From: Laetmonice hystrix
Lineage: Eukaryota
Direction: 5' to 3'
DNA length: 64,000 nucleotides
Assembly (NCBI GenBank): GCA_965235115.1
Contig: OZ249441.1
Location: forward strand, 13,578,001-13,642,000
The position numbers and the translations under genes are program-made. The stretch's first letter is position 1. Each line of letters starts with the position of its first letter. The notes under the pieces are model-generated. The model saw only the letters and a program-made list of their open reading frames with translations. It ran no database searches and had not been told where the DNA came from. This document shows positions 5,201 to 58,447 of the stretch, piece after piece.

Positions 5201-5451
5201 GACCTGTCTGCCCATCCCAGTGGCTCGGAGCTGCTTCCACCTGGCCTTGCCAGACCGTTTGTCATCTCAGCATCCTCTCTCTCTCCGCACAGGTCAGGAC
5301 GGATGAGTACAAACATTAGACCAGTAATTAGTGAGTACAAACATTAGTCCAGATGTCAATACGTCATGAGGGACGTATAGTCGTAGTCCACTCAAATTCT
5401 GATGACTCCTGTCATCATAATATGATTATGATACCACTACATCATATGACG

Positions 5452-6175
5452 CCCATCAGTTCCAACTGCTGGACCAAGGAAATAGGGACGCTCTCGAGGA
5501 GGTACTAATAACTCAACATCTGGAGCTATATCCTAACTATATCCCATCAGTTCATACTGCTGGACCAAGGAAATAGGGACGCTCTCGAGGAGGTACTAAT
5601 AACTCAACATCTGGAGCTATATCCTAACTATATCCCATCAGTTCCAACTGCTGGACCAAGGAAATGGGGACGCTCTCGAGGAGGTACTAATAACTCAACA
5701 TCTGGAGCTATATCCTAACTATATCCCATCAGTTCCAACTGCTGGACCAAGGAAATGGGGACGCTCTCGAGGAGGTACTAATAACTCAACATCTGGAGCT
5801 ATATCCTAACTATATCCCATCAGTTCCAACTGCTGGACCAAGGACATGGGGACGCTCTCGAGGAGGTACTAATAACTCAACATCTGGAGCTATATCCTAA
5901 CTATATCCCATCAGTTCCAACTGCTGGACCAAGGACATGGGGACGCTCTCGAGGAGGTACTAATAACTCAACATCTGGAGCTATATCCTAACTATATCCC
6001 ATCAGTTCCAACTGCTGGACCAAGGACATGGGGACGCTCTCGAGGAGGTACTAATAACTCAACATCTGGAGCTATATCCTAACTATATCCCATCAGTTCC
6101 AACTGCTGGACCAAGGACATGGGGACGCTCTCGAGGAGGTACTAATAACTCAACATCTGGAGCTATATCCTAACT
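5452..6175. repeat. 91-bp tandem repeat, 8 copies
   Basis: Unit CCCATCAGTTCCAACTGCTGGACCAAGGA(A/C)AT(A/G)GGGACGCTCTCGAGGAGGTACTAATAACTCAACATCTGGAGCTATATCCTAACTATAT with period 91; near-identical copies. Confidence 0.97.
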
Positions 6176-8721
6176 TCTGTTTCTGCCACGTGACGCTTAT
6201 TGAATGCAAATTTTGCACACGCCTTTGAAAACTTCATAAACTAGCACCTGCTCGCCAATGGATTAGGTATCAATTAGGCCAGCCTGTGTTCGTGAAGAAT
6301 AATTCATTACAAACGACCGTCTTTTCGTTGTAAGGAATAATGCAAAACAGGAACAAAAAGTCCAATATTTCATCACTGAATTTCCCCTACAGTACTATTT
6401 TTTTTAAAATCATACCATCTGCCAAGCTCAGTTCCTCGGAAAGAATTACTCTTTAAAAGTTTCTGACTTTATTTTTACATCTAAGCCCCTCTCCCTCCAT
6501 AAGGCCTTCAAATCCCCCTTAGAGCTAAACTCCTCCAAATAACCCTGCACGTATACGTGGTTGTCCTCTAAAGCCGACATACCATGACCTAGCGACTGGC
6601 GACCTCCCTTTCATATATTACCATTGATTAGGCGGCAGTTTTCGCAATTAGTAATCTGTACACCACTCTAACAGTACAAGGAAGGTGATAATTATCATGT
6701 TTGACAACCACTGACCCTCCTGTCAGGCCATGTCCACGGTCCAGCATACCATTGTAACCGGTCTGACCTGGAGACCTACCTGGAGACCTGGCTGGAGCTA
6801 GGGTCATCCCATCCCCTCACCAAGATCACACTCCCTGCCTACATACCTAACCTCCTGGGCCAACCGGCCTTTTCACATCATCAACGAATTGGGTCTGACT
6901 GATTCCATTGTATTTTAGACAAGACCACCTCTGGGAATCTACGACAATCTAAAGGACTGGTATATGTCACTGACACCAAATATCTCAGCCTCGACTCCAT
7001 GTCCTGGGGCCCCTTTATGATCGAGTAGTCACATTCAGTCCCTTCACCCCCTAACTACTGCTGGCATTCTAAAGTCGTGCAAATTTCAACGGCTTTTTTT
7101 CTTCTCGTACTTTGCCCACTCCTGTAAACACAAAGAAATGTGTATATGCTGTAATTTTAGCTGTAAACATTCGCCACTTTGATACACATGAGCACTTGTC
7201 AAGGACAGGTGCCAAATTTCAGGCTGCTCGCCACCTAATCAACTGTGTGCGACTGGCTCTGGTTGTGATGTAAACAAATCTGACCGTCTGAGTGGAGTGT
7301 TTGACCTTGTTTACATGAGCTGTCAGTTTAACGTCCAGCCTTTATTATCATCCTCATCTCGATGAGTTCAATCAAACAGTAGCCGTTTGGCAAACATGTG
7401 ACAGCTGGGACTCACATTAACGTCAGATGTGCCGCTATTTCACCCAAAGGAACATTCCCCACCTTCTTTCTACCCTCATCTTTGACCCCATTATCTAGCT
7501 ATTTGTTCACTTTTCCATTAGTACTGTGGCGATTCTAGGTTTATGTGTGTGTGTATTAATGTAAGTTAGTGTATTTTATTCCAAACTTTGTATGTCAGTA
7601 TTTTGGCCTTGGTGACAGGGTCGCCACAGTACTATAAGCACCGAAGGCGCATGTGTTTTGCGACACCTTTCGAAATCAATATCGCTATCGCGAATTTTGT
7701 CAGCTTACAAAATTACGACAATTTTATCAGCTTACAAAGTTAAGACAATTTCCACAATATATAATTTTCGATGAAATTCCACCCTTTCTCCCTGCTTCAA
7801 TCAGCACGTGTCAATTTTCGAGGGATTTACAGGTTGTGTATGTGTCATAACTAACGAGAGGTCGCTGTCCCACCCGTCGGTCACCACGACCGGCGGTCAC
7901 AGTGACCAACCACCACACCCGTCACCACCCTGGCGAGATTCACTCAAGATTGACCCTGTCCCTCCTGATTTGTGATAAACACGACGTCATTGTCACCTGG
8001 ATCGAGTTTCCCACACATGCCATTTCACAAGGACACGTGAAACGGTCAATGGGTTTCTTCACTCAGTGAAACGGGACCCCTTCCCCCGGGCTTCGCTTCC
8101 ATTCCAGGATTCCAGGGTCCAGAAACCACGTCAACATCATGACGTCACCACGGACATGCGCATCGGCATCGTCCGCACCAGCAGGTCGTTTCTCATCCCC
8201 AACCTGCCCTTGCCATGGTAATGTGGAATAATTACAATGATACGTACGACATTACACATTCATTTCCACTGGGCCTTTACAAGCAAACCCAACAATGAAG
8301 ATGTTTTTTTGCACACGCCTTTGAAGACTTTTACTAACAAAACCAACAATGAAGGAGCTGTTTTTCCAAAACCCACAACGACTTCCCATGATCTGGTACA
8401 AATCGCTTTCATAAGATTTACATTTACGCTTCACGTTCTTTAAATCATCTGAAATTACTGTCAGCCCTGTTAACTGTAAACTGAAACTAAAATCACAATC
8501 AATTTCTGCGAAACAAAAGTTTGGTGATGTGAAAGGTAAGAATTTGATTGACAAACAGCAAGTTTCATAGGGCATTTGGACCTTTCCTCAAAATAACGTT
8601 TTCCCTATCCGACCCTTAGGTTTTCCATGTTCAGCCATGCACACGTCCCCCCTTCTGTCATGATTAATATCACCGCAATCGAGAAATGAATGCCAGTTAA
8701 TCTTTTAAACGAAATACTTAC

Positions 8722-14700: not shown

Positions 14701-16498
14701 GTCCAGTGACTAACGGACGCAAAATATGTGACAAATGTTTGCTTCAGGGTCAAATGGTATAAAGGACAATTAATAGTCCTTGATCACAGCCCCATGTGAT
14801 AGCGCTCTGCCGTGTTAGACTAATTTACTTAGTCTAATTGACATAATACATGTCTACCTGCAGGCACAGTGGGTCAGGCAGCACAAAACTGAGGCATACA
14901 TCCACAGCGCTTCCCTTGCCGGGCATAATTAACCACTCACATTTGTCTCACTTGGCTGTTCAAAAACGCAATTAGACCTACGTGAATTCCCACCAGCAAA
15001 TACCACAACTGCGTTATATACACTTGAGGGTAAGGATTTCTAACAAGTTTACATTTCACTTTCATGAAGTTGCAGAACTAAAGGTATCTGATTAACTCGG
15101 CGGTGGCAAGCGGCCAATAAGACTGTGTCGGAGCCGCTGACCCGTCTGCCGAGGTCAATAAGCAGGAAGTACTGGTACTTGTTGATCGTCTTACCAAGTG
15201 TCGTCACCATACAAAGAGGAAACAATCTTCGAATCTAACACATTTTTCTCATCTTTTTACTTTTGTCCATAAGGATGGCAGTGAGCAGTATAGTGCTGCT
15301 AGCAGTAGAGTTTTCGGGATTTGGTTTCAAGAAGCTTTATAGTCGCCCCAGGTTAAACTTTACAACCCCCACCATACGGTATGATCTGTGGCAGACGGTC
15401 TGTCTCACCAGGTTCCAACTGGCCTGGCTATATAATGACTAGCTAACAAGTGTAGTCAACATACCATAACAACTGATTTTAGTGTAAGCTTTCAAATCAT
15501 TGCTAAATTAATACAACATAAGGATGTTGGAAGAACACAAGTACACGTTGGTAGAGAAATTAGATTTCAATCTAATTTCATTATGAAGCATCATGGTGCC
15601 AGCCCATCAGTGTAATTTAATAGAACTAGTTCAATACAAAGATTTGCCCACGACCGTACTTGGATTTCACTGTAAATGAACTGATTGTAATGAGTCTTAG
15701 TGACACGCAATCCAATGCTGACTTTTCTCCTCCAATCACTGCAGTGATAATCTCAATCTGTGTATCATTCGGCCAACAGCAGTCTGTATAATATTGGTTG
15801 ATTGGTAATCGACCGTTCACTAATACAGTCAGTAATACATGGTGACCACAAAAAAGTTAATTTCATCCAATTTTTATTAATTACACTGCTGATAAGAAAC
15901 AGAAAGTCATTGTACACTTTAGTTTTTACTGATTTCTCTCCCTCTGATTACTGTTAAAGGCAGTATATCGTTCTTTCTGTGTTTGATAATCTTAAGAAAA
16001 TAACATCTGATACTCCTGTATACGTCTGTCTCTACAAAATACAAGATTCTAATTAAATTAGACACATTTCTTCGCGACATGCTAGAACGTATATTTTCTA
16101 CATTACCGATACTGCCCATGTTCTTTAATCATATATGCTTCGACTGTCTCGACGTTGTATCTTTATTAGAAAGCTGCCTCGGTAACGTCCTTTAACATTC
16201 TTCCCATCATATTCTCCAAATGATGTTTCCATGCACAGATTTCGATGGAGGTAATTAAAGCGTTTTTCTGATGTCGTCCGTCTGCTTGTTTTAGACTCGT
16301 GGCAATGTTTGGAATACGGTAGTCGGCCAGAGAGTAAGTGACCCTAGAGGAGTGGCCGTCGGGCTCTCACTCACAGAGTAATCTGTCAATATCGAAACTA
16401 ATTACCACCCCCTCCAGCATCGTCCATCAAACGGGCCCGCTCCGGCCCAAACCGAAAAAAAAATCTTCCGACCATTTCTAATAAAGTGAGCGTGAACA

Positions 16499-17250
16499 CT
16501 GTCAGCAGATAGGAATACTCTGGTCGGAATGTATCATCATACAGCTGGCCCCAGACACCACCTCATTCAGTATCAACTTTAATAGTGTCTGTCAGCAGAT
16601 AGGAATACTCTGGTCGGAATGTATCATCATACAGCTGGCCCCAGACACCATCTCATTCAGTATCAACTTTAATAGTGTCTGTCAACAGAATACTCTGGTC
16701 GGAATTTATCACCATACAGCTGGCCCCAGACACCACCTCATTCAGTATCAACTTTAATAGTGTCTGTCAGCAGATAGGAATACTCTGGTCGGAATGTATC
16801 ATCATACAGCTGGCCCCAGACACCATCTCATTCAGTATCAACTTTAATAGTGTCTGTCAGCAGATAGGAATACTCTGGTCGGAATGTATCATCATACAGC
16901 TGGCCCCAGACACCACCTCATTCAGTATCAACTTTAATAGTGTCTGTCAGCAGATAGGAATACTCTGGTCGGAATGTATCATCATACAGCTGGCCTCAGA
17001 CACCGCCTCATTCAGTATCAACTTTAATAGTGTCTGTCAGCAGATAGGAATATTCTGGTTGGAATGTATCATCATACAGCTGGCCCCAGACACCACCTCA
17101 TTCAGTATCAACTTTAATAGTGTCTGTCAACAGATAGGAATACTGTGGTCAGAATGTATCATCATACAGCTGGCCCCAGACACCGCCTCATTCAGTATCA
17201 ACTTTAATAGTGTCTGCCAGCAGAATACTCTGGTCGGAATGTATCATCAT
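16499..17250. repeat. 90-bp tandem repeat, ~8 copies
   Basis: Unit GTCAGCAGATAGGAATACTCTGGTCGGAATGTATCATCATACAGCTGGCCCCAGACACCACCTCATTCAGTATCAACTTTAATAGTGTCT; copies start at 16501, 16591, etc. with few substitutions. Confidence 0.97.
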
Positions 17251-18296
17251 GCCGTCACTGGTAACAATAGTTTTAACACCTGTGTCCAGACTTGACCGAG
17301 CACCGTCTACTACCAGTCTCCGTCCTCACAGTGGTCCTTACATTTGTCATTACCATGAACAATCGGCTGGCTGGAGACTGGTACAGAACGATTAAACATA
17401 CATTCTGGATAACGACTGTATAACCGGGGATTCGGTGACATGAACTAACAACACATTTCCTGACAACCTTTTCTTTTAAAACAAATTTCTTGACACCTCA
17501 CCTATACATTACAAGCGTGCGTATCCCAAGTGCACACGTGCACCGTTAGATTTGTATTGATGTCATGCATGATTCGCTCAAAGTTGTGCCACAAGTTCCA
17601 AGTTATCTCCCTCTCGGCGAACAATCTGACTGAGGAGCCTTCGCCCCTTCCCCTCGTCCTATCCCAAGCCGTATCTCATTATGATGTCGGCTTGTATAAG
17701 TCGCTCCATCCCACCATCTTCACCAGCCTCATCATACTACAACCTTGATTACCTACATCTCTAAACAGACTCCTTCTGAAATTAATTCAATTTCTGCATC
17801 CATTAAAACGACAAAAAGTACGACGTAATCCAATCTAGACTATCCTTAAAGATATTATTTCTCCTCTTCTTAGCCGTAGTTATAAGGCCTAATTGGAACC
17901 AGGTATTTGATATTGAGTCCCGGTTCTATATTAAGAAAAGTAGACAGCATATCCCTTCAGAATCACAACTTTTATGACTCATGTCTGCAAGTTAATCCTA
18001 TCCCATGGAAAACGACAGAAGACTCGTGCAGAATCGTTTCTGTCTGTTCCGTATGTCGTTCAAACGTCTATCTAACCTACATCGTCTCCAAAGAATAACC
18101 TGGGCAATAACCATAATATTGATGCCTGGATACCCTTTCCCAGATCCGTCAGTTGCCTTCTCAACAACCACTGGGTCAAAGGTGGTGGCTGGGCGAGCCA
18201 TTGCAGGACTGGTGCAGGTCGTGTGACAGAGACCGAGACTGGGCCTCTGTCACTGTCCACAACACCTGTGTCAACCTCCACGTGTCACCAGAGCTT

Positions 18297-18771
18297 TCCT
18301 TATCTATCCTCTCTCCTTACCCATCCTCTCTCCTGACCCATCCTCTCTCCTTACCCATCCTCTCTCCTTACCCATCCTCTCTCCTTACCCATCCTCTCTC
18401 CTTACCCATCCTCTCTCCTTACCCATCCTCTCTCCTGACCCATCCTCTCTCCTTACCCATCCTCTCTCCTTACCCATCCTCTCTCCTTACCCATCCTCTC
18501 TCATTACCCATCCTATCTCCTTACCCATCTTCTCCTTACCCATCCTCTCTCATTACCCATCCTCTCTCCTTATCCATCCTTACCCATCCTCTCTCCTTAC
18601 CCATCCTCTCTCATTACCCATCCTCTCTCCTTACCCATCCTATCTCCTTACCCATCTTCTCCTTACCCATCCTCTCTCCTTATCCATCCTGCTTACCCAT
18701 CCTCTCTCCTTACCCATCCTCTCTCCTTACCCATCCTTTCTCCTTACCCATCCTCTCTCCTTACCCATCCT
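18297..18771. repeat. pyrimidine-rich degenerate minisatellite (~17-bp unit CCTTACCCATCCTCTCT)
   Basis: About 475 bp made almost entirely of C/T-rich variants of the unit on the plus strand. Confidence 0.95.
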
Positions 18772-19120
18772 CAGCATTGCCCTGCGCCTCATCACAGACA
18801 CCTCATGGCTTCACTTCCCACACTCGCCTTGCCTACTCTGATGAAGTGAAAATAAAGACTAAGATTTATTGGCTGCTGATCGCCAACCCTTGGGCTGCCG
18901 CCAGTTCAATAAAGCTCATCCACTGGAACTCAATAGTGTCTGTCTGAGATGAATTCAAATTCGAATTGCATCAATGCCAAGCCCTAGAGGTGAGATCAGG
19001 TTGTTGGAGTAATCAACTGGAATCTGAAAGTATCGTCAGTGGTGGTGAGAGAGGGTTGGTGTCTGACAGAGATACAGAGGTATTACCAAAGTCAACACCT
19101 GTCAGGTAAAACATTCTCTC

Positions 19121-22095: not shown

Positions 22096-22791
22096 TAGTC
22101 ATCCATTTTCATCTTTACAAAAACTTGATTCCAACAGCTCCTATTCCTCAACCTGTTATTTCTGGCCATGCCCGACCGGAGAATAGAACTGAGCCTGTTC
22201 TAATCCTGTTTCTGGAGGTGGTCTAGTGGACGTCAAGAGAGCTGGGACGAGCACGATTCGCAGCGGTCTAACAACAGAAATGGATGGAGAACCGCAGAGA
22301 GAAAGACGGTCCACCCAAGGGTCTGTCTGTCTACTAACAGAGTTTGTCACCGACCATACTGATGGTCGGTGGATTCACACACTCGACAAAGTATGCTCCA
22401 TGTATTGTGATTATCAGAGCAAATTTACCAGCCACTTGGAGAATGAGAAGTCAGGCCGTATGCTGCACGATAAATACATGGTGGACTGCAGGAGGAGCAG
22501 GAGGACCATCTAGAGCAGCAGGCAACCCACTGATCAGTCAACATGGCTCTTGTTTGGTAAAAGGGGCACAGGGAAATGAGAACATGCAATCTCCATGAGC
22601 TCTTTACTCCAATATGTAGAATATATTCCCCGGTAAAGCCCCACTGTATACAGTTTACAATAAACTCGTGACCTGTTTCAGTTTATAGGAACGGACGGTT
22701 CTTACACAAAGGATCAATAGTATGTTGATAAATATAATTCCAATTCCGTAATCGTTGAATTACGACTGCCAGCCCCATTTCATCATGGATC

Positions 22792-23525
22792 TATCGTACG
22801 GAAGGTTCCTACGACATTCCAGAAGACTGCGTGTACCGCAGAAGGACGAGGTTGAGCTGGTTAACTATATGAAGTTTATTCCAGTTCACTTTCCCAGTCT
22901 TTGTACAAAGTTATAACATGAGTATATATAGAGAAAACCATTGTCAAACTGACCAATGATATACAACATAAAAATGCTGGCTCCCGATTGGCTAAACCAT
23001 CACAGGGCAGGCCACTTTGGGGATTGTATATTGTTGTTAAAGACAAGTAAGTTGGCACTGGCAGACAGTCTAATGAGCAGTGATTACTGAGGCCGACATC
23101 CTGGCACTAGTGAGCTGCTTCACAGAGGTGGGAAACAATAGGTGAGAAAACACCTGTATTACGGGTTCCCTGTGATGAGCGACTCTGCCCCTATGACTGT
23201 ACTGCCTTCATTAATAAAACAACCTCCCAAACTAAAGCTGGGGAAAACCATCAATGGAGAACATATGTCACCCAAGAGATTACATTGTTTGTAAACCTAA
23301 GATGCCGATAGCAGACAATGAATACAAACTGAACATCTGAGAACGGTGGTTAAATCCTTAATACACCATAACATGGTTGGTAAATGTCTATAATGAACAT
23401 ATAATCCTTCTGGGTGTAAATCAAAGGTACACAATTTAAACTAGAGATAAGGATTGTCTCTGACATAGGTTGTCTGTCCATTGTTTTGAGCAAGAGTAGC
23501 CCATAGTGAAACTTGGGGTACGATA
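22792..23525 (-). repeat. 3' LTR (734 bp)
   Basis: Matches 24894-25627 with no difference found by eye; the ORF track gives identical peptides for both copies. Confidence 0.95.
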
Positions 23526-23539
23526 TATCCCCCTCGCTC
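23526..23539 (-). other. polypurine tract
   Basis: Minus strand GAGCGAGGGGGATA directly abuts the 3' LTR. Confidence 0.85.
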
Positions 23540-23674
23540 AACTGAGATTGGAGCATCCAATCTCGAAGAAACTAAAAATGATTGTTCATGACTGGATATC
23601 ATGTAGAAGATATCTGCTATGAAAAATACCAGATGTCAGGATACAGATGTGATTGTCCTCTCCTGACAGTCATG

Positions 23675-24799
23675 TTAAACTTGAACAAGGTTATTATATC
23701 GAGGTTCTGGTTGGATATACCTCCGTCTTCTATAATCATAAATTAAAAGTGTCACACAGAGTGATCCAGCATGGTCCAACTGTTCAAAGTCTGAGTAACG
23801 TCCTTGATCTGGTATAAGGTAATGCAGCCCTCTATACTTTGTGAGAAGATAAAATGCCTCGTCACGTTCAAGAAATCCAAAACAGTCTCTGATATGTGTG
23901 ATATCGTAATCAATGGGTTCAGAGAGTAACACATGGCTCTCATAGATCTCTTGTCTATAAGACAATTTCCTTGTGAGGCTCTTATCACACACGGGTATAC
24001 TTCTCTGTCCAGCTTGATGCAGTATGGGAAGTGACCGTGGATCACTTCTATTTCTGACCAGGGAATCAAGGAAGTGTTGATCTGGGAACTCCAGCTCACT
24101 AGATTCTAGACACATGGGATCCAACAATTGCTTTGTCTTCTGGGGGCCATTTCCCACAGTCTGGGTACTTTGGTCACCCCTGATTGTCCAAGTCTGAGTA
24201 GCAGAGTCAGATCTGCTCACTGCCTCACTCTGACAACTCTTGGTCTCGGATGGCACAGGGCAAAGTGCTTGCACACCTTTAGACTGGGTAGTGGGAGGAG
24301 CAGTTTGCAGCTCACGAGAGATGGTCACTGGCCTGTTTGTTTGGGTTGATGCGGTTGACATGGATGGTCCATGGTCGAGCGAAACGGCACTCACTGGAGG
24401 AGGATGTTGATTCTGTTGTGGGGTAGAGAGTCTGGCAGTTGACTTGCATTTCTTGTGACGTTTCTGCTGCAAAGCCGCTGACCTCTGCCCCTCAGGATGG
24501 TGGACTGGCTTGCCTGGTCCCTTGCTCTCCTCCTCTCTACTCCTGGATGCTGGCTGGACAGACTTCTGCTTGTTTCTCCATGCCTGGTATCTCTGAGCAT
24601 CACGGCGACGTCTGCTTGGAGATTTGTGACCAGAGGTCGATGACACACAAATGGACTTATCTGTGTCTGGATGGGTGTTCCACTCCAGAACTATGGACTT
24701 CTTATCCTGTGAGCTGGAGATGGACCAGCTTAGCGACACTCCAAGATTCTTGGCATCATGTAAAAATGCCAGAACAGGTTGTGGGAGAAATCCGTCCAT
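23675..24799 (-). CDS. 374-aa protein of unknown function encoded by the LTR element (Gag-position ORF)
   Basis: Uninterrupted ORF filling 1125 of the 1368 internal bp, starting about 90 nt after the PBS, in the same orientation as PBS, PPT and LTR promoter. Layout: compact N-terminal domain, basic motifs KSPSRRRRD and KRHKKCK, S/T/Q/P-rich linker with TQT-like motifs, aromatic-rich C-terminal domain. No CCHC knuckle. Confidence 0.85.
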   Translation of the reverse strand: MDGFLPQPVLAFLHDAKNLGVSLSWSISSSQDKKSIVLEWNTHPDTDKSICVSSTSGHKSPSRRRRDAQRYQAWRNKQKSVQPASRSREEESKGPGKPVHHPEGQRSAALQQKRHKKCKSTARLSTPQQNQHPPPVSAVSLDHGPSMSTASTQTNRPVTISRELQTAPPTTQSKGVQALCPVPSETKSCQSEAVSRSDSATQTWTIRGDQSTQTVGNGPQKTKQLLDPMCLESSELEFPDQHFLDSLVRNRSDPRSLPILHQAGQRSIPVCDKSLTRKLSYRQEIYESHVLLSEPIDYDITHIRDCFGFLERDEAFYLLTKYRGLHYLIPDQGRYSDFEQLDHAGSLCVTLLIYDYRRRRYIQPEPRYNNLVQV

Positions 24800-24875
24800 G
24801 GTTGTCTTCAGGCAGGCTGTGTCTTCTGGGAGCTAATACATATAGGGACTGTTAGCAGCTAAAAAGAGCTAGCTA

Positions 24876-24891
24876 CCCGGGTTCTCCACCA
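24876..24891 (-). other. primer-binding site, tRNA-Ala type
   Basis: Minus strand TGGTGGAGAACCCGGG begins 2 nt after the 5' LTR. TGGTGGAG is complementary to the ...CUCCACCA end expected from the tRNA-Ala G3:U70 pair and A73 discriminator. Confidence 0.8.
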
Positions 24892-24893
24892 AT

Positions 24894-25627
24894 TATCGTA
24901 CGGAAGGTTCCTACGACATTCCAGAAGACTGCGTGTACCGCAGAAGGACGAGGTTGAGCTGGTTAACTATATGAAGTTTATTCCAGTTCACTTTCCCAGT
25001 CTTTGTACAAAGTTATAACATGAGTATATATAGAGAAAACCATTGTCAAACTGACCAATGATATACAACATAAAAATGCTGGCTCCCGATTGGCTAAACC
25101 ATCACAGGGCAGGCCACTTTGGGGATTGTATATTGTTGTTAAAGACAAGTAAGTTGGCACTGGCAGACAGTCTAATGAGCAGTGATTACTGAGGCCGACA
25201 TCCTGGCACTAGTGAGCTGCTTCACAGAGGTGGGAAACAATAGGTGAGAAAACACCTGTATTACGGGTTCCCTGTGATGAGCGACTCTGCCCCTATGACT
25301 GTACTGCCTTCATTAATAAAACAACCTCCCAAACTAAAGCTGGGGAAAACCATCAATGGAGAACATATGTCACCCAAGAGATTACATTGTTTGTAAACCT
25401 AAGATGCCGATAGCAGACAATGAATACAAACTGAACATCTGAGAACGGTGGTTAAATCCTTAATACACCATAACATGGTTGGTAAATGTCTATAATGAAC
25501 ATATAATCCTTCTGGGTGTAAATCAAAGGTACACAATTTAAACTAGAGATAAGGATTGTCTCTGACATAGGTTGTCTGTCCATTGTTTTGAGCAAGAGTA
25601 GCCCATAGTGAAACTTGGGGTACGATA
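24894..25627 (-). repeat. 5' LTR (734 bp)
   Basis: Direct repeat of 22792-23525 with the same inverted termini. Confidence 0.95.
24977..25093 (-). promoter_or_regulatory. LTR core signals: CCAAT box, TATA box, AATAAA
   Basis: On the minus strand, in order: CCAAT (25093-25089), TATATATA (25032-25025), AATAAA (24982-24977). This fits a long U3, short R, short U5 layout; the same signals occur 2102 bp lower in the 3' LTR. Confidence 0.6.
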
Positions 25628-27589
25628 GATCCAATTGTGTGTGATAACGTTTACCAGACGTTGTCAGAGTAATCACTATGATAATGCCTGCAGGCAGCCC
25701 TCGCCCAATTACCCACACCTACCAACAGTTCAACTAACACTCTTCATCAAGGTTATCAGATTGAACACAAGGACAGGGAACTTGGTCTAGAACTGAGGTC
25801 TAGGGGTCCAATACCAGAGAAATCGGCCATAAATGATTCTTTCTACCATAGAGGGGCGATGGTGTGAAGTCAGCCTTCCTAGACGAATGACTCCATTCTA
25901 ATGGAATCTATATCAGAACTGCCTGAGGTATATTGTAGATCTCTAAGGATCCATAATCTCACGTGGCCTGATGAATGACATCATTCCACAGGCACTCAGA
26001 CAGCATAGAAGACGATAAGATACACACTGGGTTGTTCAGTCAGGGAATCTAAATAAACATACTGATTCCGTGCTGGTATCTATGGACCTCTAAATGGGAT
26101 TCCAGACTTTCGTTTGTGCAATAGGATATGTACATCATTTTATTACCTACCCTGACAACAAATGTCAAAGTGTTACTGCCACGCCGGAGTATTTGTCCCG
26201 TGTTAGTGGAATTACCAGCAGGTAATTTCGATCCATGCCGGCAGGTCTAATCTTGGTAAAATGTACACCATGGATGCACGACCTAATATCCATCAGTGCC
26301 CACTTGTAGGCCTCCATCAATCAGGGATGAGAGTTACCATGGTGTCCAGGTACCCCCTGCCTCCCCACCCCCGGGTCCGACCCAGGCTGGCTCCATCACT
26401 GGCTGGGCACCGACCAGGCATTGTTTCAGAGTTGGCACAGAATGAGGGTGTTCCTTCAGGACAAACAGCGCTGCACGCAAACTGTTGGCTTCCGGGGCCA
26501 GCACCAGGTGGGGCAGCGGACACCAAGATTTGTCCGGTACCCCAACCAACACCAACACCACCACACGAGGCCGGGGTTAATTCTGCTGAGTGCCAGTTAG
26601 GCTGCCAGCCGACCGCTGGGGACTGCAGCCCCCAGGGGGAGCCAGTAGTACTACTGTCTGGGGATTACATTAATGGTTTGTTCCCTGGTATACCATGTCG
26701 AAAAAGGTCCCGTGTTCAATAGACGCCTGGGGTACAAAACGGACATTTCTTACTAAAATACATCTATCCAATGTCAAGGTGTTTTGTCATTGTGACGTGC
26801 GAATTCTGGCCCTTCATATCTGTGAGTAGATGTTCCACTGACGATTGTCCATACTTATGACCATGGTGACATTTTCAAACTTTTATCGTCCGCAGTGTGA
26901 TACAGTTTATTGCCAGTGATTGCCAGTTTATCCAATTATTTGGTGAATTTCGGATTAATTTGATCCGTTGTGTCAGCCATGTTATTCCCGTGTCGGTCGA
27001 GAAGTGTTGCTGGGATCCCCTTGACGGTAAGCTGAGTCGGACCTTCCTGTCAGTCCTCATTTGTCAGGCTGTCTCACGTGAGACTAATTTATCTCTACGT
27101 CCACGCTTATCGGCCATAACAGCCATTTTCTGAACGACCTGCAAGTCGAGCACAACATGCAAAGTTTGTTTTCAGACATTTCGATGTTCATTAACTCGAG
27201 TGTAATGCTTTCACAGGCCGACGTCTATAAAATCTATCTACAGGCTTTCCCCTTTGTTCTATATGATCCATTCAAAAAGTACACGTGGAATGCAAAACAG
27301 GTGTTACCTTTCGAACGGTACATGGATACGGTACATGTGGATATATAGGTTCTCATCTGATGAACAGGAATTAACCTTTTAAAACCTCGTGATTCTGCGT
27401 CTTGTATTATAACAATACTAAAGAAAGTTCTCACTTTTTTATCCGAGTATAAGGATAACGGTTTTCAGTATCAGGAGGGACACTGTTTTTTTTTACCTCG
27501 ATGGGCGGGGGGGGGGGGGGGGGGGGCTGGGGCTGGCGCAGTGGACTTTCCTGCATTGCAGTGCTGCCGACTGCTTTATCCAAGGCCCG

Positions 27590-37657: not shown

Positions 37658-40049
37658 ACATAAGCACAAGCAGTGCTCTGCTGCATTCTGCCCAAACGTT
37701 CAGTGACAGCTTCATACGATAATTGGTGCCCCATATTGACAACCTATGATTCTCGATGTCCAGTGTGGGGTACCTGTCGCCTACATGACCCATGACCTAT
37801 ACGGTTGGCCAACCTTTGCCCTCTCTGTCTGATATTATTCTATAGAATCTGTAGGATCTGTAGTGAGTGACCATGACACTCCCAAGTTTTACTCGGTGAT
37901 GATTACAACCACAGACACTGTCAATGTTATAAATGACCGTTACCCACAGAATGCCAGCCTGGCCTACAATCGACGCCAACACTGCAGAGCCTGGGCCCTC
38001 TGCCAGCAAACAGCACCCAAATTAATCTAGCCGTAAACCATCACAAAAAGGGAAACTGTCATGTGCACTGTTCTCATGTGTGTCTGTGCGTTTTGCAGCA
38101 GTAGCATCATTCAGGGAAATCGTCCTGCACGCAGGCCCGCTCCCCATCGTTCTCTTCTACATCTCACTCGTACCTTGTGGGGGGAGGGCTACCCGCCGCC
38201 TGGTGGGCGGCGCGCACACTACCACCCACCGACGTGACACGGCTCACTGAGAACAGCGCGCCCTAGCGGCCTATCTGGGCACCAGTGGCAGTTGACTGCA
38301 AGACTGTGCCAAGAGTTGGAAGCCGCCAGTCACATTTTGTTTGTTAACCACAAATTTAGACATCCAAATTGGACCGGAACTCTCAACATGCATGCTCCAT
38401 GTACCTCACCCACATCTGTACTCCGACTTCCTGCAATGGCTCCCGACTAATCAATTACAGTTGTGCCTTCGTTAGACACAGCACGAACTCCAATATCACA
38501 TCATGTACCGAGGGTTAATTGTTCCTGACGCTAAATGCACTCTTCCAACTATTGGCAATGCCAGAGTGGCATTGCTGTGACAGGGGGTCCAAAGCTGAAT
38601 CTGTTCATATCATACTCGGACTCCTTCCTCAAACTATCGTCCCTCCATCAATAATCTCTCCAAGCAATACAAGACACTACAGCTATCCTGGGTCAGGGAT
38701 TTCATCAACACCAGAAACATGTAGAAAGAAAAAGGCAGTTTAAACATATCGGATTTTGTCGGTTACCTGATCTTGTGGAGATTCATGGTTTCTTTGACCA
38801 ATCTCTGGCCATCTTACAGGACTTGGGTTCTATATTATTTCGGTTTAGCCCGGTAACTTCCAAACAGACCACACAATCGGTTTATAACCTGGCGGTATCA
38901 AGCAAACGTATCTCCTTGTTAGCCGACACATCAGCTTGTCCGCTAACATGACCTCGAACGACACTTTAGTACATATCTGTGAGGACAGACACGTATACCA
39001 GTATCTGCTGCACAGAAAATAATTAATGCAACTCACATTTTACTTTGATATATGAAATGATCCTCCCTTTCATGATCAAACAGTCACGTTTAATCACTAC
39101 AAATGACAGCTTTCACTTTAGCCTGTCATAGGTCATTGGTGGCAGCATTGTTCATTGCAGGATGGGATGTCCTCTCTGTTCAAACTTGCATTAGCTAATA
39201 AGGATAAATAACGTATCCCTAGGTCGTCCGAAATTAAAATGGATCCACTCGGTTCGGAGAGGCTGGGCTGCAGAATAACATATTGCCTTCAATAAATGAG
39301 AATAAAAAAGGCACTTGGTACATGCCACAGCTTGTGACCGTAAGTGTATGATTGCGCAAAGTCTCCCTCCTTCCATCAACAACTCGACCCTTCCCTTACC
39401 ACATCCATCCTCACCGCACTACATCCAGGTACGCATGTACTACTGCACTTATAATATAGACACCGTCCCATCCTGCCGCACCCAATCCTTACTTTTACCG
39501 AGTCTTTTTTTTTTAATCTCCAAAAAGGGAAGCGGCAGAAAATGGACAATAGCACTAGCGGCTATTTTGACAACAGGTAACAAAACATGAGAGTTGCCGG
39601 TGGCCCCCTGGCTCGTTCCATCCCGCACGCGATCTCTGGATGACAAGCTTGCATGCAGCCCTGGATCCGGCCCCCCACCATGCCACTCTCCATTCACCGG
39701 GGGAATAAAAAAAAATCATCTCCTGCAGATAATCGCCTACATCACACGCAGAGCAATTCACAAAGTAACTTTTAATTACGTAATACCACATAGCACCCAT
39801 GCTTACTCTCCTCGCCTTTTGGAAAGTTTCTTGTATATCCCCCGAAAACAACTGAGCAATTATATAATTATTTCTGATTTAATCATTGAGGGATATGTCC
39901 AACCATTAGTGTGCTTTAATGTTACATTAAGGAAGAAACCAAGGGTGCAAAGGAAGAAAGTGGAGAAATGGCATTAACATAATCCAGATCAGAGAGATAC
40001 TCGTCACTATTGTGTGGATAGAACCAACCACAAACCAAGGCTGTCTTAA

Positions 40050-40293
40050 GGCCTGTACCCACTAGCGCGTTTTACCGCTGCGGTCCACGCTGAGCGACAA
40101 AACGCGCTAGTGGGTTCGGGCCTTTAGCTGTTATTGTTGTATTCATCGTGATAAAATTCGGACTCCCACGTAATTCGGAAATGTCCACATATCTCCTGAA
40201 GGCGGTGGTGCTTGCCGTAAGGCCTGAAACCACTAGCGCGTTTTGTCGCTCTGCGTGGACCGCAGCGGTAAAACGCGCTAGTGGGTACAGGCC
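40050..40293. mobile_element. 244-bp MITE with ~74-bp self-palindromic TIRs
   Basis: The left arm 40050-40123 is the reverse complement of the right arm 40220-40293 (few mismatches). TTAA flanks both ends. Each arm contains CCACTAGCGCGTTTT...AAAACGCGCTAGTGG. Confidence 0.9.
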
Positions 40294-43200
40294 TTAACAG
40301 AGATCCATGCCACTGTAAATGTCAATAGTCACACATTGTTGGTCGACATCCCTCAGTGTTGGCTGACACGTTCTACTGTTCCTCTCATTTCATTCAGCTG
40401 CCCTTTATCTGTGCAATAAGATCAAGACAGCTCAAGTGAAGTTAAGGGCTGGTTGGGTTAAAGCCAGCTATAGGATGGGCACTCAACTGGAGAGAAGATC
40501 TGAGAACTTACAAAGTAATTACACTGTAATCCAGACCTCCTGGGCGACAGTACACTGTTTTGTCAGGTGATTCTCCTTGTGTTTCAGACCTATTTTTTCC
40601 GTGAGAACGGGGTTACACTGAACATCCTTAGAACAGATGAAGCTACAAATTAGCTCCAAATGCCCACATGTTTCTCTTCGACAGCGTGTTCAGGCCCACT
40701 TGTCTCCATCTGCACTTGTTGATGCCTGGGGACCGAATACTGGACCGAAATAACGCGAGTGAAGGGAAAAAGTCAGAGATTTTCAGGAGATGCACCAGGG
40801 GACCGTAAAAACGTGGTGCTCAAAGCTAACCCGGCAACTATCTAAGGTATTATGACTTAGTGACTCTACGACTTTCTAGATTTTTTCCCCCTGTCTTAGA
40901 CGGGAAACAACTGAGTACAATGTACATGTACATGTATTTTTATCAGTCGGATCGACGCGACGGGTTCGAACACCTTATATGGGCCAGGGTGGACCAAAGG
41001 GAGTCCTTGTACGATAAGGCGCCCAGGGTATGTTTTGTGGAACATGTGCATACAACCCTCAGCAGCATGACCAAGATAAACTCACATAATGTGGGCCAGG
41101 ATCTCTGCCATATCGTCACCGACCAACCCACCCGAAATATTACCATCCTGACGTCGTCTCCATTTCTCGTGCTTAACGCAAACAGCTGCAAAATCAAAGT
41201 GAAACCGACATCTGAACCTCACGTTAAAAATCATGAATGAGTGTAACTTTAAACCTAGATCCCGTCACTATTCCCTTGGGCAACTCGGTCAGCGTCAGCA
41301 TTTCTATCATCACTATTTCAAAAACCAAAACCAAAAATAAAACATAAACCCCTCTTATGCGAGTATAATTCAATCCCTGGCTCCCTGTTTCAATAAGTTA
41401 CAAGTGAACCGTATAATAGAAAGAAGTGAGCTCGTCATCCCAAGGCCCCCGCCACCCGCGCTGTTGGCGGCCTGGCGCAAACGGCTGTGAACGAATTTCT
41501 TCATGTTATTTTTCGTGCACAGCGGCAGGGAGCCGTGCCAGCAGCCACGCCAATGTGTGAGAACGGCTTGGATAGCTTCCTCCTATCTATCACGTTTTTC
41601 TCATCAGGGGTTCTTAGTGCCGAGACTATCACTTAATTCTGCTTGATGGACGATGTTGGGACTGACATCTCATGATAAAGTCAATAAAGTCGCTCTCCTG
41701 TAGCGTTTCATGCTTTAAAATGCTTTCACTCTAAAACTTACTGGAAATTCTCATTGAAAGATTTCCAATGGGATTACAATTTCGCAAATGCAGCCGCCAG
41801 ATCATAGATGTGTTGTGTCACCGAGGGAGTATAAATAGCCCTGATACTGTCCTGCAGAATGTCGTCTGCTGGTGTCGCTGCGTCACGTCAACAATGAACA
41901 ACAGTGTGGCTGTCATGTAATGCTCATCCTACCGTCTCCTGGATTACGTAATGAGGGACCACATTAAAATCTTGTCCCCAGTCATTACAGTGCCTGTCAG
42001 CCCAACTCACGCTAGTCATCGTATTAAAAAATATCACAACTCCTTCACGTCTTACGGGGTTGGATATCTGACACACACAAGTAGGCCTACACGAACTGGC
42101 ACAGAACAACATCAAAAACCCGGTCTTCATTCCTGGCTCGACACAAATACACCCACGACGTGAACGGGGGAAAAATAACTAAACTGAGGCCCTGTATCAT
42201 GTATGATCATAGAACACAGGTAGATATGTATGCTGTATACATGTATTGTATACCATCAGTGCGGGGCGCAAACTGCAGTGCCCCCTGCAGGACAATTTAC
42301 GTACTAAAGGTAAGATGACACCTCAACCTAATGGTTATCGTTGAAGATGATCCATAGACCTATCAATACTTGTCTGCAGAATGGGAAACTATTCTGAAAT
42401 GTCTTTTTATCAAATCATTTCTCATATAATTCCACAGAAACGTGCTGTAAGTAGAACGAAGAAGAATAATCTATAAGAATCTATAAGCGACATAAAAGCC
42501 GGGCAAGACTGCAAATATCTAAGAAATTTGGATCTACATTCCAGAAAACTGACCTGTGCCCATATAAAAAGAGTCTGCGAAAGTATATCAAAGACTTCAT
42601 TACAGATTGAGTCAAACAGTATCTGGATTTGCTCTCCTCCGATGTGTTGTTGCTGATTTCATCTACTCCCACAATATTTGCCTGATTATAATCTTTAGAA
42701 TTATAAAGAGCATTCTGATGCTTTGTCTAGGCTCTTCAGACATTGATATAGCCTAAACTTTCTCACTGAGGAAAATGTATACTTGCTTCACCAGCAATAT
42801 GTATCGGACTCCATATTAACAAACTGACTTGAAACTGGCATAAAGTACTGCCATCAATGTGCCTTCTGATCACCAGTCCGACAAGAACAAGCCATCTCCT
42901 GAATCACTGACTGTAGGCCCTTGATCTCCGGGAACCAGTTCATGCGGCACGAGGCGTGTGCAAACCTTCCGACCACACTTGCATGACTTCAACCCCTATT
43001 GACATTAAGATACCGTCGCCTTCATTTATTTCCTTACAGTTACTATCAGCCGGCAGTTATGATAGAAAGGAAGCATGCTAGAACTTGAAGTAAACATGAG
43101 TCGTCGTGACTGCCTGAATTGACTGTTTTCATGAGGAAAGAATTGTGTAACCAGTTGTTGGCGTGCCGTCTGTCTATGGGTCACCGTCACTGAGGAGCTT

Positions 43201-48643: not shown

Positions 48644-51039
48644 TCTTTATCATGCGGTTATTTTGTGGCATATTATAGATCTCAGATCTCTGACTGTGAA
48701 AGTCTGCTTGGTCCCATTACGAAATCATATGGAACCGGTCCCAGCCTCATTACTCGCCGCCCTTAGTCATGTCTCCATACGCAATGGTATGCATGTCTTG
48801 CCAGGTTAATTATCCAACCACTAAACGACGGGTAACTGATCTAATGTCTCTGGACACTGCCAGGCGTTGGCTGTCGTATCTAACTGTATCTTGGATAGAC
48901 GTTGGCCGCCTTCAACCTCGCCAGCCAAGTATAATTTCCCAAGGCCCTGGCTGGTAGTCCTTGGTTGCCAGCATGTCTGTTCTACCAATGATCAACAACA
49001 GTCCCAAGAAGCAGATCTTTCGACTCATCGATCCGCCCATTGTCTGTAGACTGTCATGTACAAAGACTGTAGAGGTCGTTTATTCATGCTCATCAAAAAG
49101 AACATATCAACCGTCTTCTATCTCCAATATATCAACGTTTAAACGTGACAGTAGCCTTTATTATAGATCACTGGTCTAGATTCTACAAAAGGGATTTACT
49201 GTCTGGTGCTGGTCTGTCATTAAATGGTTCAATATGAAATCATACTTCAGTCTCTTCCGAGAACGGTAAAACGTGTTCGTGAAGACAGCCCAGGAATACG
49301 TCATAGAAAGTTCAAACATCAACACGATACGAGAAACCTGTCGACATTAAGCAGTTTTAAAGTAAAGCCACGCTTGTCATCCGTGGCTGGCGAGCCCAGC
49401 TGGAACCGTTCCGTATCCCAGGTTAACACAATAAACATTCAGACTTCCGTCTAACCCTCCCGGGTATATGTAAAACACTGTCCAAGAACAAACACAAAAA
49501 ATACCCGACGACCTAACACCTGATCGGAACAATATGTTTCAATCAAAGAGAACTTCAAACTTCAAGCGGACACCAAATCACAGCTACGGCCCCTTCTCCC
49601 CAATGCCTTGGCTCCTCTTCCCTCCAGCGATAACCCTACCCCTTCATGATGCCAAGGCTGCGGAGTTTCTGTATAAATACAACAGTGCCCGCTCACTGCC
49701 TTGGTGTGTGTAAGGTCGGGCTGTATGTACTTCAGGAGAAACTTGTAACGTACAATAACAAGCAACGCTGAACCTGGCTTAGCTTTGCGACCCGGCCCGA
49801 ATAAATATCTATTTGAATCACCGGCCGGTAGAACGAAACGTATCCAACACGCTGCAATCATCTTACCGGCAAACTGGATTTGGAATCACACGCTGGGAGT
49901 GCTTGTCAAGAATTCTCATATTGATGACTTACACGATGGTTATATTTTTGTGTGGTACATTAAACTATTCATCATCACTGCACTTCTCGAAAATCAGCTC
50001 GAGCCTCAGTAAAACCAAGCTGGTTGGTGCCATATTTCTGGAGGATGATAGGGGTGGGTGTGAAGATGGGAGCCTGCCCTTTCAGCCTCCTGCTCCTCCT
50101 CCCAGCCCCCCCCCCCCCAACCCCAGCCTCCTGCAGCGCAAGCTCTATTGTTTTTACCCATCTTCCGGGACAAAAAACAGACTTCTCAAAACACAAGTCA
50201 AGGCCGACTCCTCAAGTCCACAGTGACAGAGCCCAGACATTGGAGCATGTTGTCTATACCAAACAGCCTCAGCTGATCTTCAACTGGAGCTCGTACTGTC
50301 GATACTTGATACATTTGCTGAGAAGCTGCACCGATTCAGACCTATACACAGAGCGTTATGTTCCATGGCTGTTCAGTCCGACAACATGACAGCACAAGTG
50401 ATGAGTCAAAGATATACGGCCGGGGGCCGGGCGGGCGGGTGGGAGGAGCACCCCTATTTTGGCTGCAGTGCAGTACCTGCCCTTGGGTCAGGGATCCATG
50501 CGAAGCGTGTCTCGATGCTGGTGGTCGCACCCTGGTGGCCACACATGGAACTCATCTCTACCGACTTGGGGCCACAGATTGTACTAGGCGTGGGAAGCGG
50601 GGTCAGATTAATATATTTTGATCAAATAATCAGAATACTAATTGTTCATATGTTAAGTGTAACGCGAACTAAGGAATATTAAATCCACATGGCTCTGCTG
50701 GGGATGATAAATAACAAATCTCTTAAGAATGATTCCCACTTTCGATAACTGTCAGAACTCTACCGTTTTCAATATTCTTATTTCGAACAACCGAAGGAGA
50801 GAGGGCTAAAGGAAAACAACAACGTAAACAATTCTGGAGGCAAATTTAATCAAGTTATACTACCCGGTAGTTGTTGAAGTAACAAAAATCCTATTCTAAT
50901 AAAGACTCAGGTGTTAATTATCACTGGCAATCAAAACTAATCTATCGCCAAGACAAGTATATTAAATCTAAATATCAGAGATGGGAAGTTCTACAATACT
51001 GAAGACGAATAGAGATTCTCTCCAATTAAAGATTGTCGC

Positions 51040-52137
51040 CACAGACAACACGTAACATTGAACACAGTACCAGGGGCGGGGAGCGGGTGTGCTCACAGAC
51101 AACACATAACCTTGAACACAGCGTCAGGGGCGGGGAGCCGGGGAGATCACAGACAACACATAACCTTGAACACAGCGACAGGGGCGGGGAGCGGGGGGCG
51201 GGGGGCGGGGGTGATCACAGACAACACATAACCTTGAACACAGCGCCAGGGGCGGGGAGCCAGGGAGCGGGTGTGATCACAGACAACACATAACCTTGAA
51301 CACAGCGCCAGGGGCGGGGAGCGGGTGTGATCACAGACAACACATAACCTTGAACACAGCGCCAGGGGAGGGGAGCCGGGGGGCGGGTGTGATCACAGAC
51401 AACACATAACCTTGAACACAGCACCAGGGGCGGGGAGCCAGGGAGCGGGTGTGATCACAGACAACACATAACCTTGAACACAGCGACAGGGGCGGGGAGC
51501 GGGTGTGATCACAGACAACACATAACCTTAAACACAGCACCAGGGGCGGGGAGCCAGGGAGATCACAGACAACACATAACCTTGAACACAGCACCAGGGG
51601 CGGGGAGCCAGGGAGCGGGTGTGATCACAGACAACACATAACCTTGAACACAGCACCAGGGGCGGGGAGCCAGGGAGCGGGTGTGATCACAGACAACACA
51701 TAACCTTGAACACAGCGCCAGGGGCGGGGAGCGGGTGTGATCACAGACAACACATAACCTTGTACACAGTACCAGGGGCAGGGAGCGGGTGTGATCACAG
51801 ACAACACATAACCTTGAACACAGCGACAGGGGCGGGGAGCCGGGGGGCGGGGGTGATCACAGACAACACATAACCTTGAACACAGCGCCAGGGGCGGGGG
51901 GCGGGGGGCGGGGGTGATCACAGACAACACATAACCTTGAACACAGCGCCAGGGGCGGGGAGCGGGTGTGATCACAGACAACACATAACCTTGAACACAG
52001 CGCCAGGGGCGGGGAGCCGGGGGCGGGGGTGATCACAGACAACACATAACCTTGAACACAGCGCGAGGGGCGGGAGTGATCACAGACAACACATAACCTC
52101 AAACACAGCGCCAGGGGCGGGAGTGATCACAGACAAC
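51040..52137. repeat. G-rich minisatellite, ~21 units of ~45-60 bp
   Basis: Near-constant core GATCACAGACAACACATAACCTTGAACACAGC plus a variable GGGGCGGGG(AGC..GGG)n linker. Confidence 0.97.
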
Positions 52138-55818: not shown

Positions 55819-57198
55819 GTGGCTGTACGGAACCCTTCACTCCTACTATTAGGCATACTGACTGCCGTGCCCAAAGATTTGTACTCCCCCGTAATCAAAT
55901 TATCTTAAATATCTTAAACAATAAAGCCAATTGTCGCCCAATATGAGCTAATTAATTTGAATTTCACTGTAATAATGTCTTTAGAAATAGTCACGAAGTC
56001 TAAATCATTTCATTGACTTATTGAGAACAGGTTCATATTATCACTGTGACGTAAGTTAACATCCTTAAATTCAAAGCCGGTTTGGGCAAGAAGTTTCCTC
56101 ATCATAAACCAACAGAGATCTCTAGACGAAGAGACGGCCCGATCTATATTAGTTTTTCACGAAGAATTACTGCCTGATGCAGAACAGTGCCACCTCTTCC
56201 ATCATAGTGCTAACAACAGGGCTTGCATGAAGCGTCACTGGTCCACATTATGTCACAATTACTGTGGGAGCCTATTGTCAGAGGGCCGATAGCGCGCTGG
56301 CCGGGGAACCTGTCTATGGGGCGGCCCGTGCAGGCGGCACACATTAAGATAATGAGTGGCCGTATTCCTCGTCTTAATGACTGCCTTGCTGAGCTACGGC
56401 TCGTTCATATCAATCCATATCGATAACATATATCAGCCCTGTTTGGGATCCCCAAATGTCTCATCTGATCACTTACATGCGGGTAAAAAAAGGCGAGGAT
56501 ACTTCTGTTTTATTCAGTGGTCACCAGCCATATTGATTGCTCCTCCGGGTTGGTAGGAGCCGTTCGGAATGTCGTTCTTGTAGTATGAGATTAATGGTTA
56601 CTATTTTATAAATGGAACTCCCAATCGTACTTCAAATTGAAGATTTTGCATCGACTGTGATTTCATCTTGTTTGTGTCGCCTCTCTGAGACTCATACATA
56701 AAGCTAGACAGCCTGATTAGCTAGACTGATTATTGATTCCGTACTAGATTTATACACACTCACAGATGGTCACAGGTACGAGACTCCCATTAACTGATGT
56801 GATATTCTGGTTGATACTGTCCACAACACCTGCTGTAACATCACGGTGTAGATACAGAGTGTCCGTGACCACTATAATACATTACTATAGTCACGCCAGG
56901 CCCCCAATGAGGTCGCTGCGGACGCTCCACGCTGGCCGCTGGCCGTTGCGCGCCCCCTAGTAGGAATTCTAACACTAACCCATCCACTTGCCTCCGCCAA
57001 TCCTGTTGTAAAGACTGCACGATTAATTTTGAAAAAAAAAACTAGAAGTAGATGGAAGGGTTCCTGATTACTACTCGAATAACCTTGATAAATGCATCAC
57101 ATCTGCAGAGACAACAAAAAGATCGGGTTCTTTTATTTCCTTCATGATCAAAAAGTACCAATCTGTAGATGGTAAAAACAAGAGATGTTCTCGACTGT

Positions 57199-58447
57199 GA
57201 GATATTTTACCAGTGTACAGACTGGCTGCTGAGAGATATTTTACCAGTGTACAGACTGGCTGCTGAGAGATGTTTTACCAGTGTACAGACTGGCTGCTGA
57301 GAAATGTTTTACCAGTGTACAGACTGGCTGCTGAGAGATATTTTACCAGTGTACAGACTGTCTGCTGAGAGATATTTTACCAGCGTACAGACTGGTTGCT
57401 GAGAGATATTTTACCAGACAGGTTGCTGAGAGATGTTTTAACAGCGTACAGACTGGTTGCTAAGAGATATTTTACCAGCGTACAGACTGGTTGCTGAGAG
57501 ATATTTTACCAGTGTACAGACTGGCTGCTGAGAGATATTTTACCAGCGTACAGACTGGTTGCTGAGAGATATTTTACCAGACAGGTTGCCGAGAGATGTT
57601 TTAACAGCGTACAGACTGGTTGCTAAGAGATATTTTACCAGCGTACAGACTGGTTGCTGAGAGATATTTTACCAGTGTACAGACTGGCTGCTGAGAGATA
57701 TTTTACCAGCGTACAGACTGGTTGCTAAGAGATATTTTACCAGCGTACAGACTGGTTGCTGAGAGATATTTTACCAGTGTACAGACTGGCTGCTGAGAGA
57801 TATTTTACCAGCGTACAGACTGGCTGGTGAGAGATATTTTACCAGTGTACAGACTGGCTGGTGAGAGATATTTTACCAGTGTACAGACTGGCTGGTGAGA
57901 GATATTTTACCAGCGTACAGACTGGCTGGTGAGAGATGTTTTACCAGCGTACAGACTGGCTGGTGAGAGATGTTTTACCAGCGTACAGACTGGCTGGTGA
58001 GAGATATTTTACCAGCGTACAGACTGGTTGCTAAGAGATATTTTACCAGCGTACAGACTGGTTGCTGAGAGATATTTTACCAGTGTACAGACTGGCTGCT
58101 GAGAGATATTTTACCAGCGTACAGACTGGCTGGTGAGAGATATTTTACCAGTGTACAGACTGGCTGGTGAGAGATATTTTACCAGTGTACAGACTGGCTG
58201 GTGAGAGATATTTTACCAGCGTACAGACTGGCTGGTGAGAGATGTTTTACCAGCGTACAGACTGGCTGGTGAGAGATGTTTTACCAGCGTACAGACTGGC
58301 TGGTGAGAGATGTTTTACCAGCGTACAGACTGGTTGCTGAGAGATATTTTACCAGCGTACAGACTGGCTGCTGAGAGATATTTTACCAGCGTACAGACTG
58401 GTTGCTGAGAGATATTTTACCAGACAGGTTGCTGAGAGATATTTTAC
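57199..58447. repeat. 34-bp minisatellite, ~37 units, with higher-order structure
   Basis: Unit GAGAGAT(A/G)TTTTACCAG(C/T)GTACAGACTGG(C/T)TG(C/G)T, with three 27-bp deletion variants. Confidence 0.97.

Follow-up and report, generated by a model that had tools for sequence, protein, structure and literature searches.

A non-autonomous LTR retrotransposon of Laetmonice hystrix whose only protein carries a conserved array of six putative LC8-binding motifs

A stretch of 64,000 nucleotides of the Laetmonice hystrix genome (assembly GCA_965235115.1, contig OZ249441.1, positions 13,578,001 to 13,642,000), in the following called the window, contains a non-autonomous LTR retrotransposon. Its sole protein carries six regularly spaced, glutamine-anchored motifs of the type bound by the dynein light chain LC8, and the anchor codons are under purifying selection. 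Our preferred explanation, to which we assign a probability of a little under 0.6, is that LC8 dimers zip two chains of this protein into a rod between their heads and tails. Such use of LC8 is already known from host proteins and viruses. The literature searched, with Repbase, Dfam and subscription journals outside its scope, held no transposon protein with a multivalent LC8 array, and there LC8 met transposons only on the side of host silencing, and otherwise appeared in viruses.

The element, its protein and its copies

The element occupies 22792-25627 on the minus strand (2,836 bp). It is a non-autonomous LTR retrotransposon, as evident from its LTR pair, primer-binding site, purine tract, target-site duplication and dispersed copies. 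Window coordinates of its parts are as follows.

24894..25627, minus strand: 5' LTR, 734 bp, with ends TATCGTAC...GTACGATA, not TG..CA, 100% identical to the 3' LTR
24874..24891, minus strand: primer-binding site of 18 nt that can pair with the 3' end of the host's tRNA-Ala
23675..24799, minus strand: sole ORF, 374 aa, with no Pfam family, neither Gag nor Pol
24563..24799, minus strand: N-terminal module, aa 1-79, a helix and a beta-hairpin followed by a KSPSxRRRD helix, with the strongest constraint of any domain
24374..24562, minus strand: basic disordered linker, aa 80-142, 63-121 aa long among relatives
24155..24358, minus strand: six-motif LC8-type array, aa 148-215, with anchors Q153, Q165, Q177, Q190, Q202 and Q213
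23714..24103, minus strand: C-terminal domain, aa 233-362, whose core at aa ~272-357 is predicted to be ubiquitin-like (beta-grasp)
23529..23539, minus strand: polypurine tract, immediately before the 3' LTR
22792..23525, minus strand: 3' LTR, 734 bp
22788..22791, no strand: target-site duplication GATC, other copy at 25628-25631

The ORF is the only coding content of the 1,368-bp internal region, in which no gag, pol, env, reverse transcriptase or integrase was found. The initial annotation had spoken of a retroelement protein, which holds for the retroelement, but the protein is neither Gag nor Pol and is encoded by the one ORF that this non-autonomous LTR element has. The complement of the primer-binding site has 61 pattern matches in the genome and sits in tRNA-Ala(AGC/TGC) genes; all three tRNA genes called at such loci, across two of them, are tRNA-Ala. 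Hammerhead and other ribozymes gave no match at E<=0.5 in six loci. Apart from the element, the window contains minisatellites at 5361-6297 (period 91), 16423-17314 (90), 18243-18822 (17), 51025-52135 (54-62) and 57082-58400 (34), and an inverted repeat of 84 nt at 40041-40302.

A Gag or TR-GAG-like identity of the protein was rejected, as the ORF has no capsid domain and no zinc knuckle: the AF2 model contains no helical capsid domain, and a search for Gag families in 23 members found none. The linker region is basic, with 19 K/R vs 5 D/E at aa 56-122. Over residues 81-232 the model stays at pLDDT <50 and shows no secondary structure, such that the array is predicted to lie in a disordered region between the N-terminal module and the ubiquitin-like domain, as an LC8 target should. 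For the C-terminal domain a beta-grasp fold is predicted, with SUMO1/2 among the best structural matches and RBD, UBX and FERM-type folds tied with them (Z within 1). Because none of 23 aligned rows has a diglycine C-terminal to the last strand, we regard it as an integral domain and not as a conjugated modifier.

A search of the genome (627 Mb, 35 contigs) with the protein returned 64 matches of 36-100% identity on many contigs. We examined 50 loci, namely 30 listed ones and 20 full-length ones picked from the other 34. The ORF is intact (363-380 aa) in 49 of the 50 and split in one; further broken or partial copies are present among the 64 matches. A 4-bp target duplication was scored by script in 24 of 32 rows, a 5-bp duplication in none of the 32, and the LTR pairs within the examined copies are mostly 99-100% identical. 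Intact ORFs, near-identical LTRs and the wide range of identities together indicate a family that was mobile recently and comprises several old subfamilies, with modules exchanged between them. One such subfamily (L030-L036, seven rows) has lost motifs 5-6 and retains four motifs, one of them strict; yet it was mobile recently, with intact ORFs and LTR identities of 99.9-100% in six of the seven, which counts against a need for all six motifs. It is recombinant, sharing the N-terminal half and differing in the C-terminal half, where its version of the C-terminal domain is 24% identical. The C-terminal domain is weakly constrained and swapped between subfamilies, and the swapping suggests that this tail may be an exchangeable specificity module. 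At another locus (L009-L011, G000:C21, 17.97 Mb), three tandem element copies share LTRs and a single ATAC duplication flanks the array of copies.

Conservation of the array and its fit to LC8 binding rules

The initial annotation had described six glutamine-anchored motifs that are kept at the level of the protein and do not form an obvious repeat in the DNA. The quoted contexts are indeed present, with 12, 12, 13, 12 and 11 aa between successive anchors, and the six units of 33 nt have a mean identity of 34%, or 26% once the three anchor codons are removed. In composition shuffles (20,000) of residues 80-232 of the studied copy, p=0.0002 was obtained for its three TQT, p=0.012 for its six relaxed motifs, a pattern picked after inspection of the data, and p=0.09 for the bare QT count. 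The TQT count is significant in all seven family members tested (p<=0.004), the relaxed-motif count in three of them.

Homologues were compared in an alignment of 53 full-length rows (47 genomic ones, two tandem duplicates having been dropped, and 6 database proteins), which diverge down to ~35% identity. The anchor Q is retained in 303 of 318 row-positions, that is, for motifs 1 to 6 in 53, 53, 52, 53, 46 and 46 of the 53 rows. Losses occur in L030-L036, which are without motifs 5-6, and in P0006, where exactly one unit is cleanly deleted. The spacing of the glutamines, whose conservation had been proposed as a check, stays within 11-14 aa in 53/53 rows; the upstream linker meanwhile varies between 63 and 121 aa. 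Mean column identity among nine representatives is 0.79 at the anchors vs 0.41 in the rest of the array. Among eight representatives the T at +1 is invariant at motifs 1, 2 and 5; the non-motif residues Q131 and Q220 are likewise invariant, which counts against a reading in terms of LC8.

Between subfamilies (6 pairs), pN/pS amounts to 0.10-0.35 at the anchors vs 0.60-0.85 in the remaining array, and to 0.23-0.37 in the N-terminal module and 0.68-0.96 in the C-terminal domain, values that come from few sites and from pairs sharing ancestry. The Q codons show only synonymous changes and no non-synonymous one in 8/8 pairs. Hence, the anchor codons are under purifying selection, and with the glutamines conserved, the anchors selected and the DNA units diverged, the pattern is maintained at the protein level.

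An LC8 motif comprises 8 aa in a disordered region, with Q at position 0, small residues at -1 and +1, and prolines disfavoured ahead of the anchor (PMC6607443). According to the same source, TQT alone predicts poorly, as 7 of 19 PSSM-predicted peptides bound LC8. From its Table S4 we took a strict rule, i.e., a Q anchor with T/V/I/S at -1 and T/V/C/I at +1 and no pre-anchor proline. Three of the six motifs of the studied copy comply, as do 3-4 motifs in 46 of the 53 rows and one in the seven L030-L036 rows; for motifs 1 to 6 the rule is passed by 50, 27, 13, 7, 27 and 45 of the 53 rows. In the studied copy, the anchors of motifs 1, 5 and 6 occur among the published LC8 binders, and those of motifs 2-4 are degenerate (LQT, VQA, CQS). 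The latter are canonical in other subfamilies, which have TQT, VQT or IQT at motif 2, VQT at motif 3 and TQT at motif 4. In a comparison by eye, the array motifs resemble the binders CAPRIN2, ATMIN, ZFPM1, 53BP1 and MAP4 listed in Table S4 (PMC6607443). A proline stands at -2 of motif 5 in 18 of 46 rows, and these prolines, together with the small number of strict anchors, make six strong sites unlikely. By this rule, the array holds the minimum of canonical anchors for multivalent binding, though not at all six positions.

Weak sites need not prevent binding. Poor LC8 sites are overcome by a multivalent context (PMC12057147), and in KANK1 an LC8 rod is formed from individually weak sites joined by 3-4 aa linkers (PMC12803091, where 4-5 aa are cited for Nup159). 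The linkers between the 8-aa motifs of the studied array measure 4, 4, 5, 4 and 3 aa and match both. As described in PMC12803091, the L2 region of KANK1 and Nup159 also resemble our protein in that a disordered stretch with several weak or strong motifs lies between folded domains; they differ in being host structural proteins, whereas the present array is encoded by a transposon and has six predicted sites. In ASCIZ/ATMIN, too, a disordered region harbours many TQT-type motifs, but this protein is described as an LC8 sensor with variable linkers and heterogeneous low occupancy (PMC5963919), in contrast to the fixed spacing found here. LC8 genes are present in the host genome. Taking all this together, we consider it likely that LC8 binds the six-motif array.

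Related families and a candidate helper

When a diverged C-terminal domain served as query, a sister family of non-autonomous LTR elements came to light (54 matches), and a third non-autonomous family has a related layout.

L112, 3778-5334, minus strand (also L113, L116-L138): sister family, single ORF of 421-518 aa, element ends TGTTA...ACA, 4-bp duplications
L095, 7123-7962, minus strand (also L097, L100): third family, 2.3-kb repeat unit, with knuckles, one TQT and a coiled coil

The sister ORF consists, in this order, of Gag-type zinc knuckles, a KSPSxRRRD-like helix, two motifs 11 aa apart and a coiled coil; longer members have the C-terminal ubiquitin-like domain in common with the studied protein, and one match at a probability of 95% supports the likeness in architecture. 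A knuckle ORF of at least 250 aa is found in 23 of 30 sister loci, two of them duplicates, and despite the zinc knuckles the ORF gave no capsid match. The second motif reads S/C/T-Q-T in all 25 rows, two database proteins included. The ORF of L095 shares its last residues with that of L112. Six motifs without a coiled coil vs one to three motifs with one suggest that both serve dimerisation, an observation on three families of one genome and not a statistical correlation.

Among 69 remote relatives of the N-terminal module, which are heavily non-independent with many rows forming one large group, at least one relaxed motif occurs in 56 and at least two in 51. By eye, 5 of about 7 lineages reach at least three motifs; no protein among the 19 Mytilus-named relatives does so, which speaks against the LC8 reading. 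VQC and IQC motifs are in use as well, and P0016 has its motifs at 188/200/213/225. P0016 and P0091 combine the N-terminal module and motifs 11-14 aa apart with a weak C-terminal chromodomain match (E 0.001 and 0.04, respectively). A broken remote relative (L091, 5848-7218) lies on an AT-rich contig and is flanked by inverted repeats of 230 bp or more, not by LTRs.

Intact Gypsy-type elements with the order gag-pol-ORF3 (L080-L082) have unusual TATCAT...ACGACA ends, identical LTR pairs and a tRNA-Ala-type primer site, with a 4-bp duplication at L080 and L081. ORF3 has 878 aa in L082, without Pfam or PDB match, and its frame is broken in L080/L081. These elements are no more than candidates for a helper of the studied element, and no internal sequence shared between the two was found. 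Two other loci carry an internally deleted pol element with a satellite of primer-site copies (L078, G000:C5, 27.97 Mb), and, with the same primer site, a tandem array of another element with a period of 13 kb (L110, C12, 27.5-27.7 Mb), respectively.

A possible LC8 rod and its alternatives

We propose that host LC8 dimers stack on the six motifs and would thereby join two chains into a short, stiff rod, ~20 nm long for six LC8 dimers when scaled from KANK1, which would hold the paired N-terminal modules apart from the paired ubiquitin-like domains predicted. By analogy with KANK1 and Nup159, linkers of 3-5 aa may lead to cooperative stacked rods in which weak sites can be occupied, too. More loosely, the LC8 ladder could take the role that a coiled coil plays in the sister family, and the N-terminal end could bind nucleic acid, given the basic linker and the zinc knuckles at this place in the sister family. 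The dimer might then help the RNA or DNA of the element to reach a helper's machinery or a host factor via the ubiquitin-like end. A nucleic-acid-binding head and a docking tail are suggested by the charge, the knuckle swap and the fact that selection maintains an ORF which should be dispensable for a non-autonomous element. We somewhat favour the view that the LC8-bound array acts as a dimerising rod; an action of the dimer on the element's own RNP is rather doubtful. The initial annotation had assumed that LC8 is co-opted for dimerising or rigidifying the protein or for particle trafficking. Conservation, selection at the anchors, spacing and predicted disorder support the array and the former reading well, and trafficking finds weak support.

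The array could instead bind LC8 as a sink or decoy: by titrating LC8, and with the SUMO-like domain luring SUMO-dependent factors, the protein would draw both away from the silencing of transposons by the host. Co-transcriptional silencing by piRNAs in Drosophila requires LC8/Cut-up, which docks on a pair of TQT motifs in Panoramix (PMC7861614). As presented there, Panoramix in SFiNX/PICTS parallels our case as an LC8-driven dimerisation via adjacent TQT motifs in transposon biology, but has two motifs and acts on the side of host defence. A SUMO ligase belongs to the Panoramix pathway, SUMO1/2 rank among the top fold matches predicted for the C-terminal domain, and the chromodomain matches of P0016/P0091 would fit as well. 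Panoramix, however, is not known outside flies, and LC8 is abundant; a sink needs neither a fixed spacing of 11-14 aa nor a trade-off with coiled coils, and SUMO ties with other folds. We therefore consider a decoy unlikely.

A cluster of SQ/TQ sites for ATM/ATR kinases, or some other Q-recognising partner in place of LC8, would account for the S/T that always precedes the anchor in motifs 1, 5 and 6 and for the S/T-rich linker (26/80). Yet S/T at -1 occurs in 0/52 rows for motif 3, 20/53 for motif 2 and 25/53 for motif 4, where Q is nonetheless invariant; the invariant T at +1 and the VQC/IQC motifs of remote relatives, which are LC8-type and not phosphorylatable, also speak against kinase sites, which we hold to be distinctly improbable. 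Even less credible is that LC8 connects the element particle with dynein so that it is carried towards the nucleus; within the earlier idea, transport as dynein cargo has the least in its favour. For foamy virus Gag, binding to LC8 has been reported to serve the traffic of capsids (PMC3705263), but this contact is a coiled coil and not a TQT array, and the ORF protein has no capsid domain. Moreover, LC8 is generally accepted as a dimerisation hub and not as a dynein cargo adaptor, because clients and dynein occupy identical grooves (PMC6607443). That the array is a functionless by-product of an S/T/Q-rich linker or of an old internal duplication is already largely refuted. In its favour, the relaxed-motif counts are non-significant in four of seven sequences (p 0.06-0.21); against it, the TQT counts are significant in all seven, the spacing is fixed and the anchors are under purifying selection where synonymous sites are near-saturated.

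Among non-autonomous LTR elements, TRIM/LARD and TR-GAG either code for nothing or have kept gag. With these and with LTR retrozymes the studied element shares LTRs, primer site, purine tract, target duplication and the lack of pol, but unlike them it keeps a selected ORF that is neither Gag nor Pol. Some Gypsy elements carry an extra ORF (Retand, bdelloid ORF3), likewise an accessory ORF of uncertain function in an LTR element; it lies beside gag-pol, whereas here the accessory ORF is the entire coding content. Rabies P, Ebola VP35, HHV-7 U19 and foamy virus Gag are parasite proteins that use host LC8, but with one or two motifs in Table S4 (PMC6607443) or a coiled-coil contact (PMC3705263), and none of these is a six-site ladder or stems from a transposon. 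Tentatively, the elements may form an undescribed animal class of protein-coding satellite retrotransposons with a single modular protein, comprising a nucleic-acid-binding head, an RD helix, an LC8 ladder or coiled coil, and an exchangeable ubiquitin-like or chromo tail. LC8 would then be a free structural part of a rod that hijacks a helper or disarms silencing, and the head-plus-ladder cassette would be common to unrelated mobile elements.

From a biological point of view, transposons would join the users of the LC8 hub if the LC8 reading is true, and since LC8 is essential for silencing in flies, a conflict over one hub is conceivable. The families offer a natural series, from one to six motifs, with or without a coiled coil and with strong or weak anchors, for probing how LC8 cooperativity depends on motif number and linker length. 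The non-autonomous LTR elements found here are not deletion derivatives but maintain a protein of their own under selection, which raises the testable question of what a parasite of a retrotransposon gains from coding.
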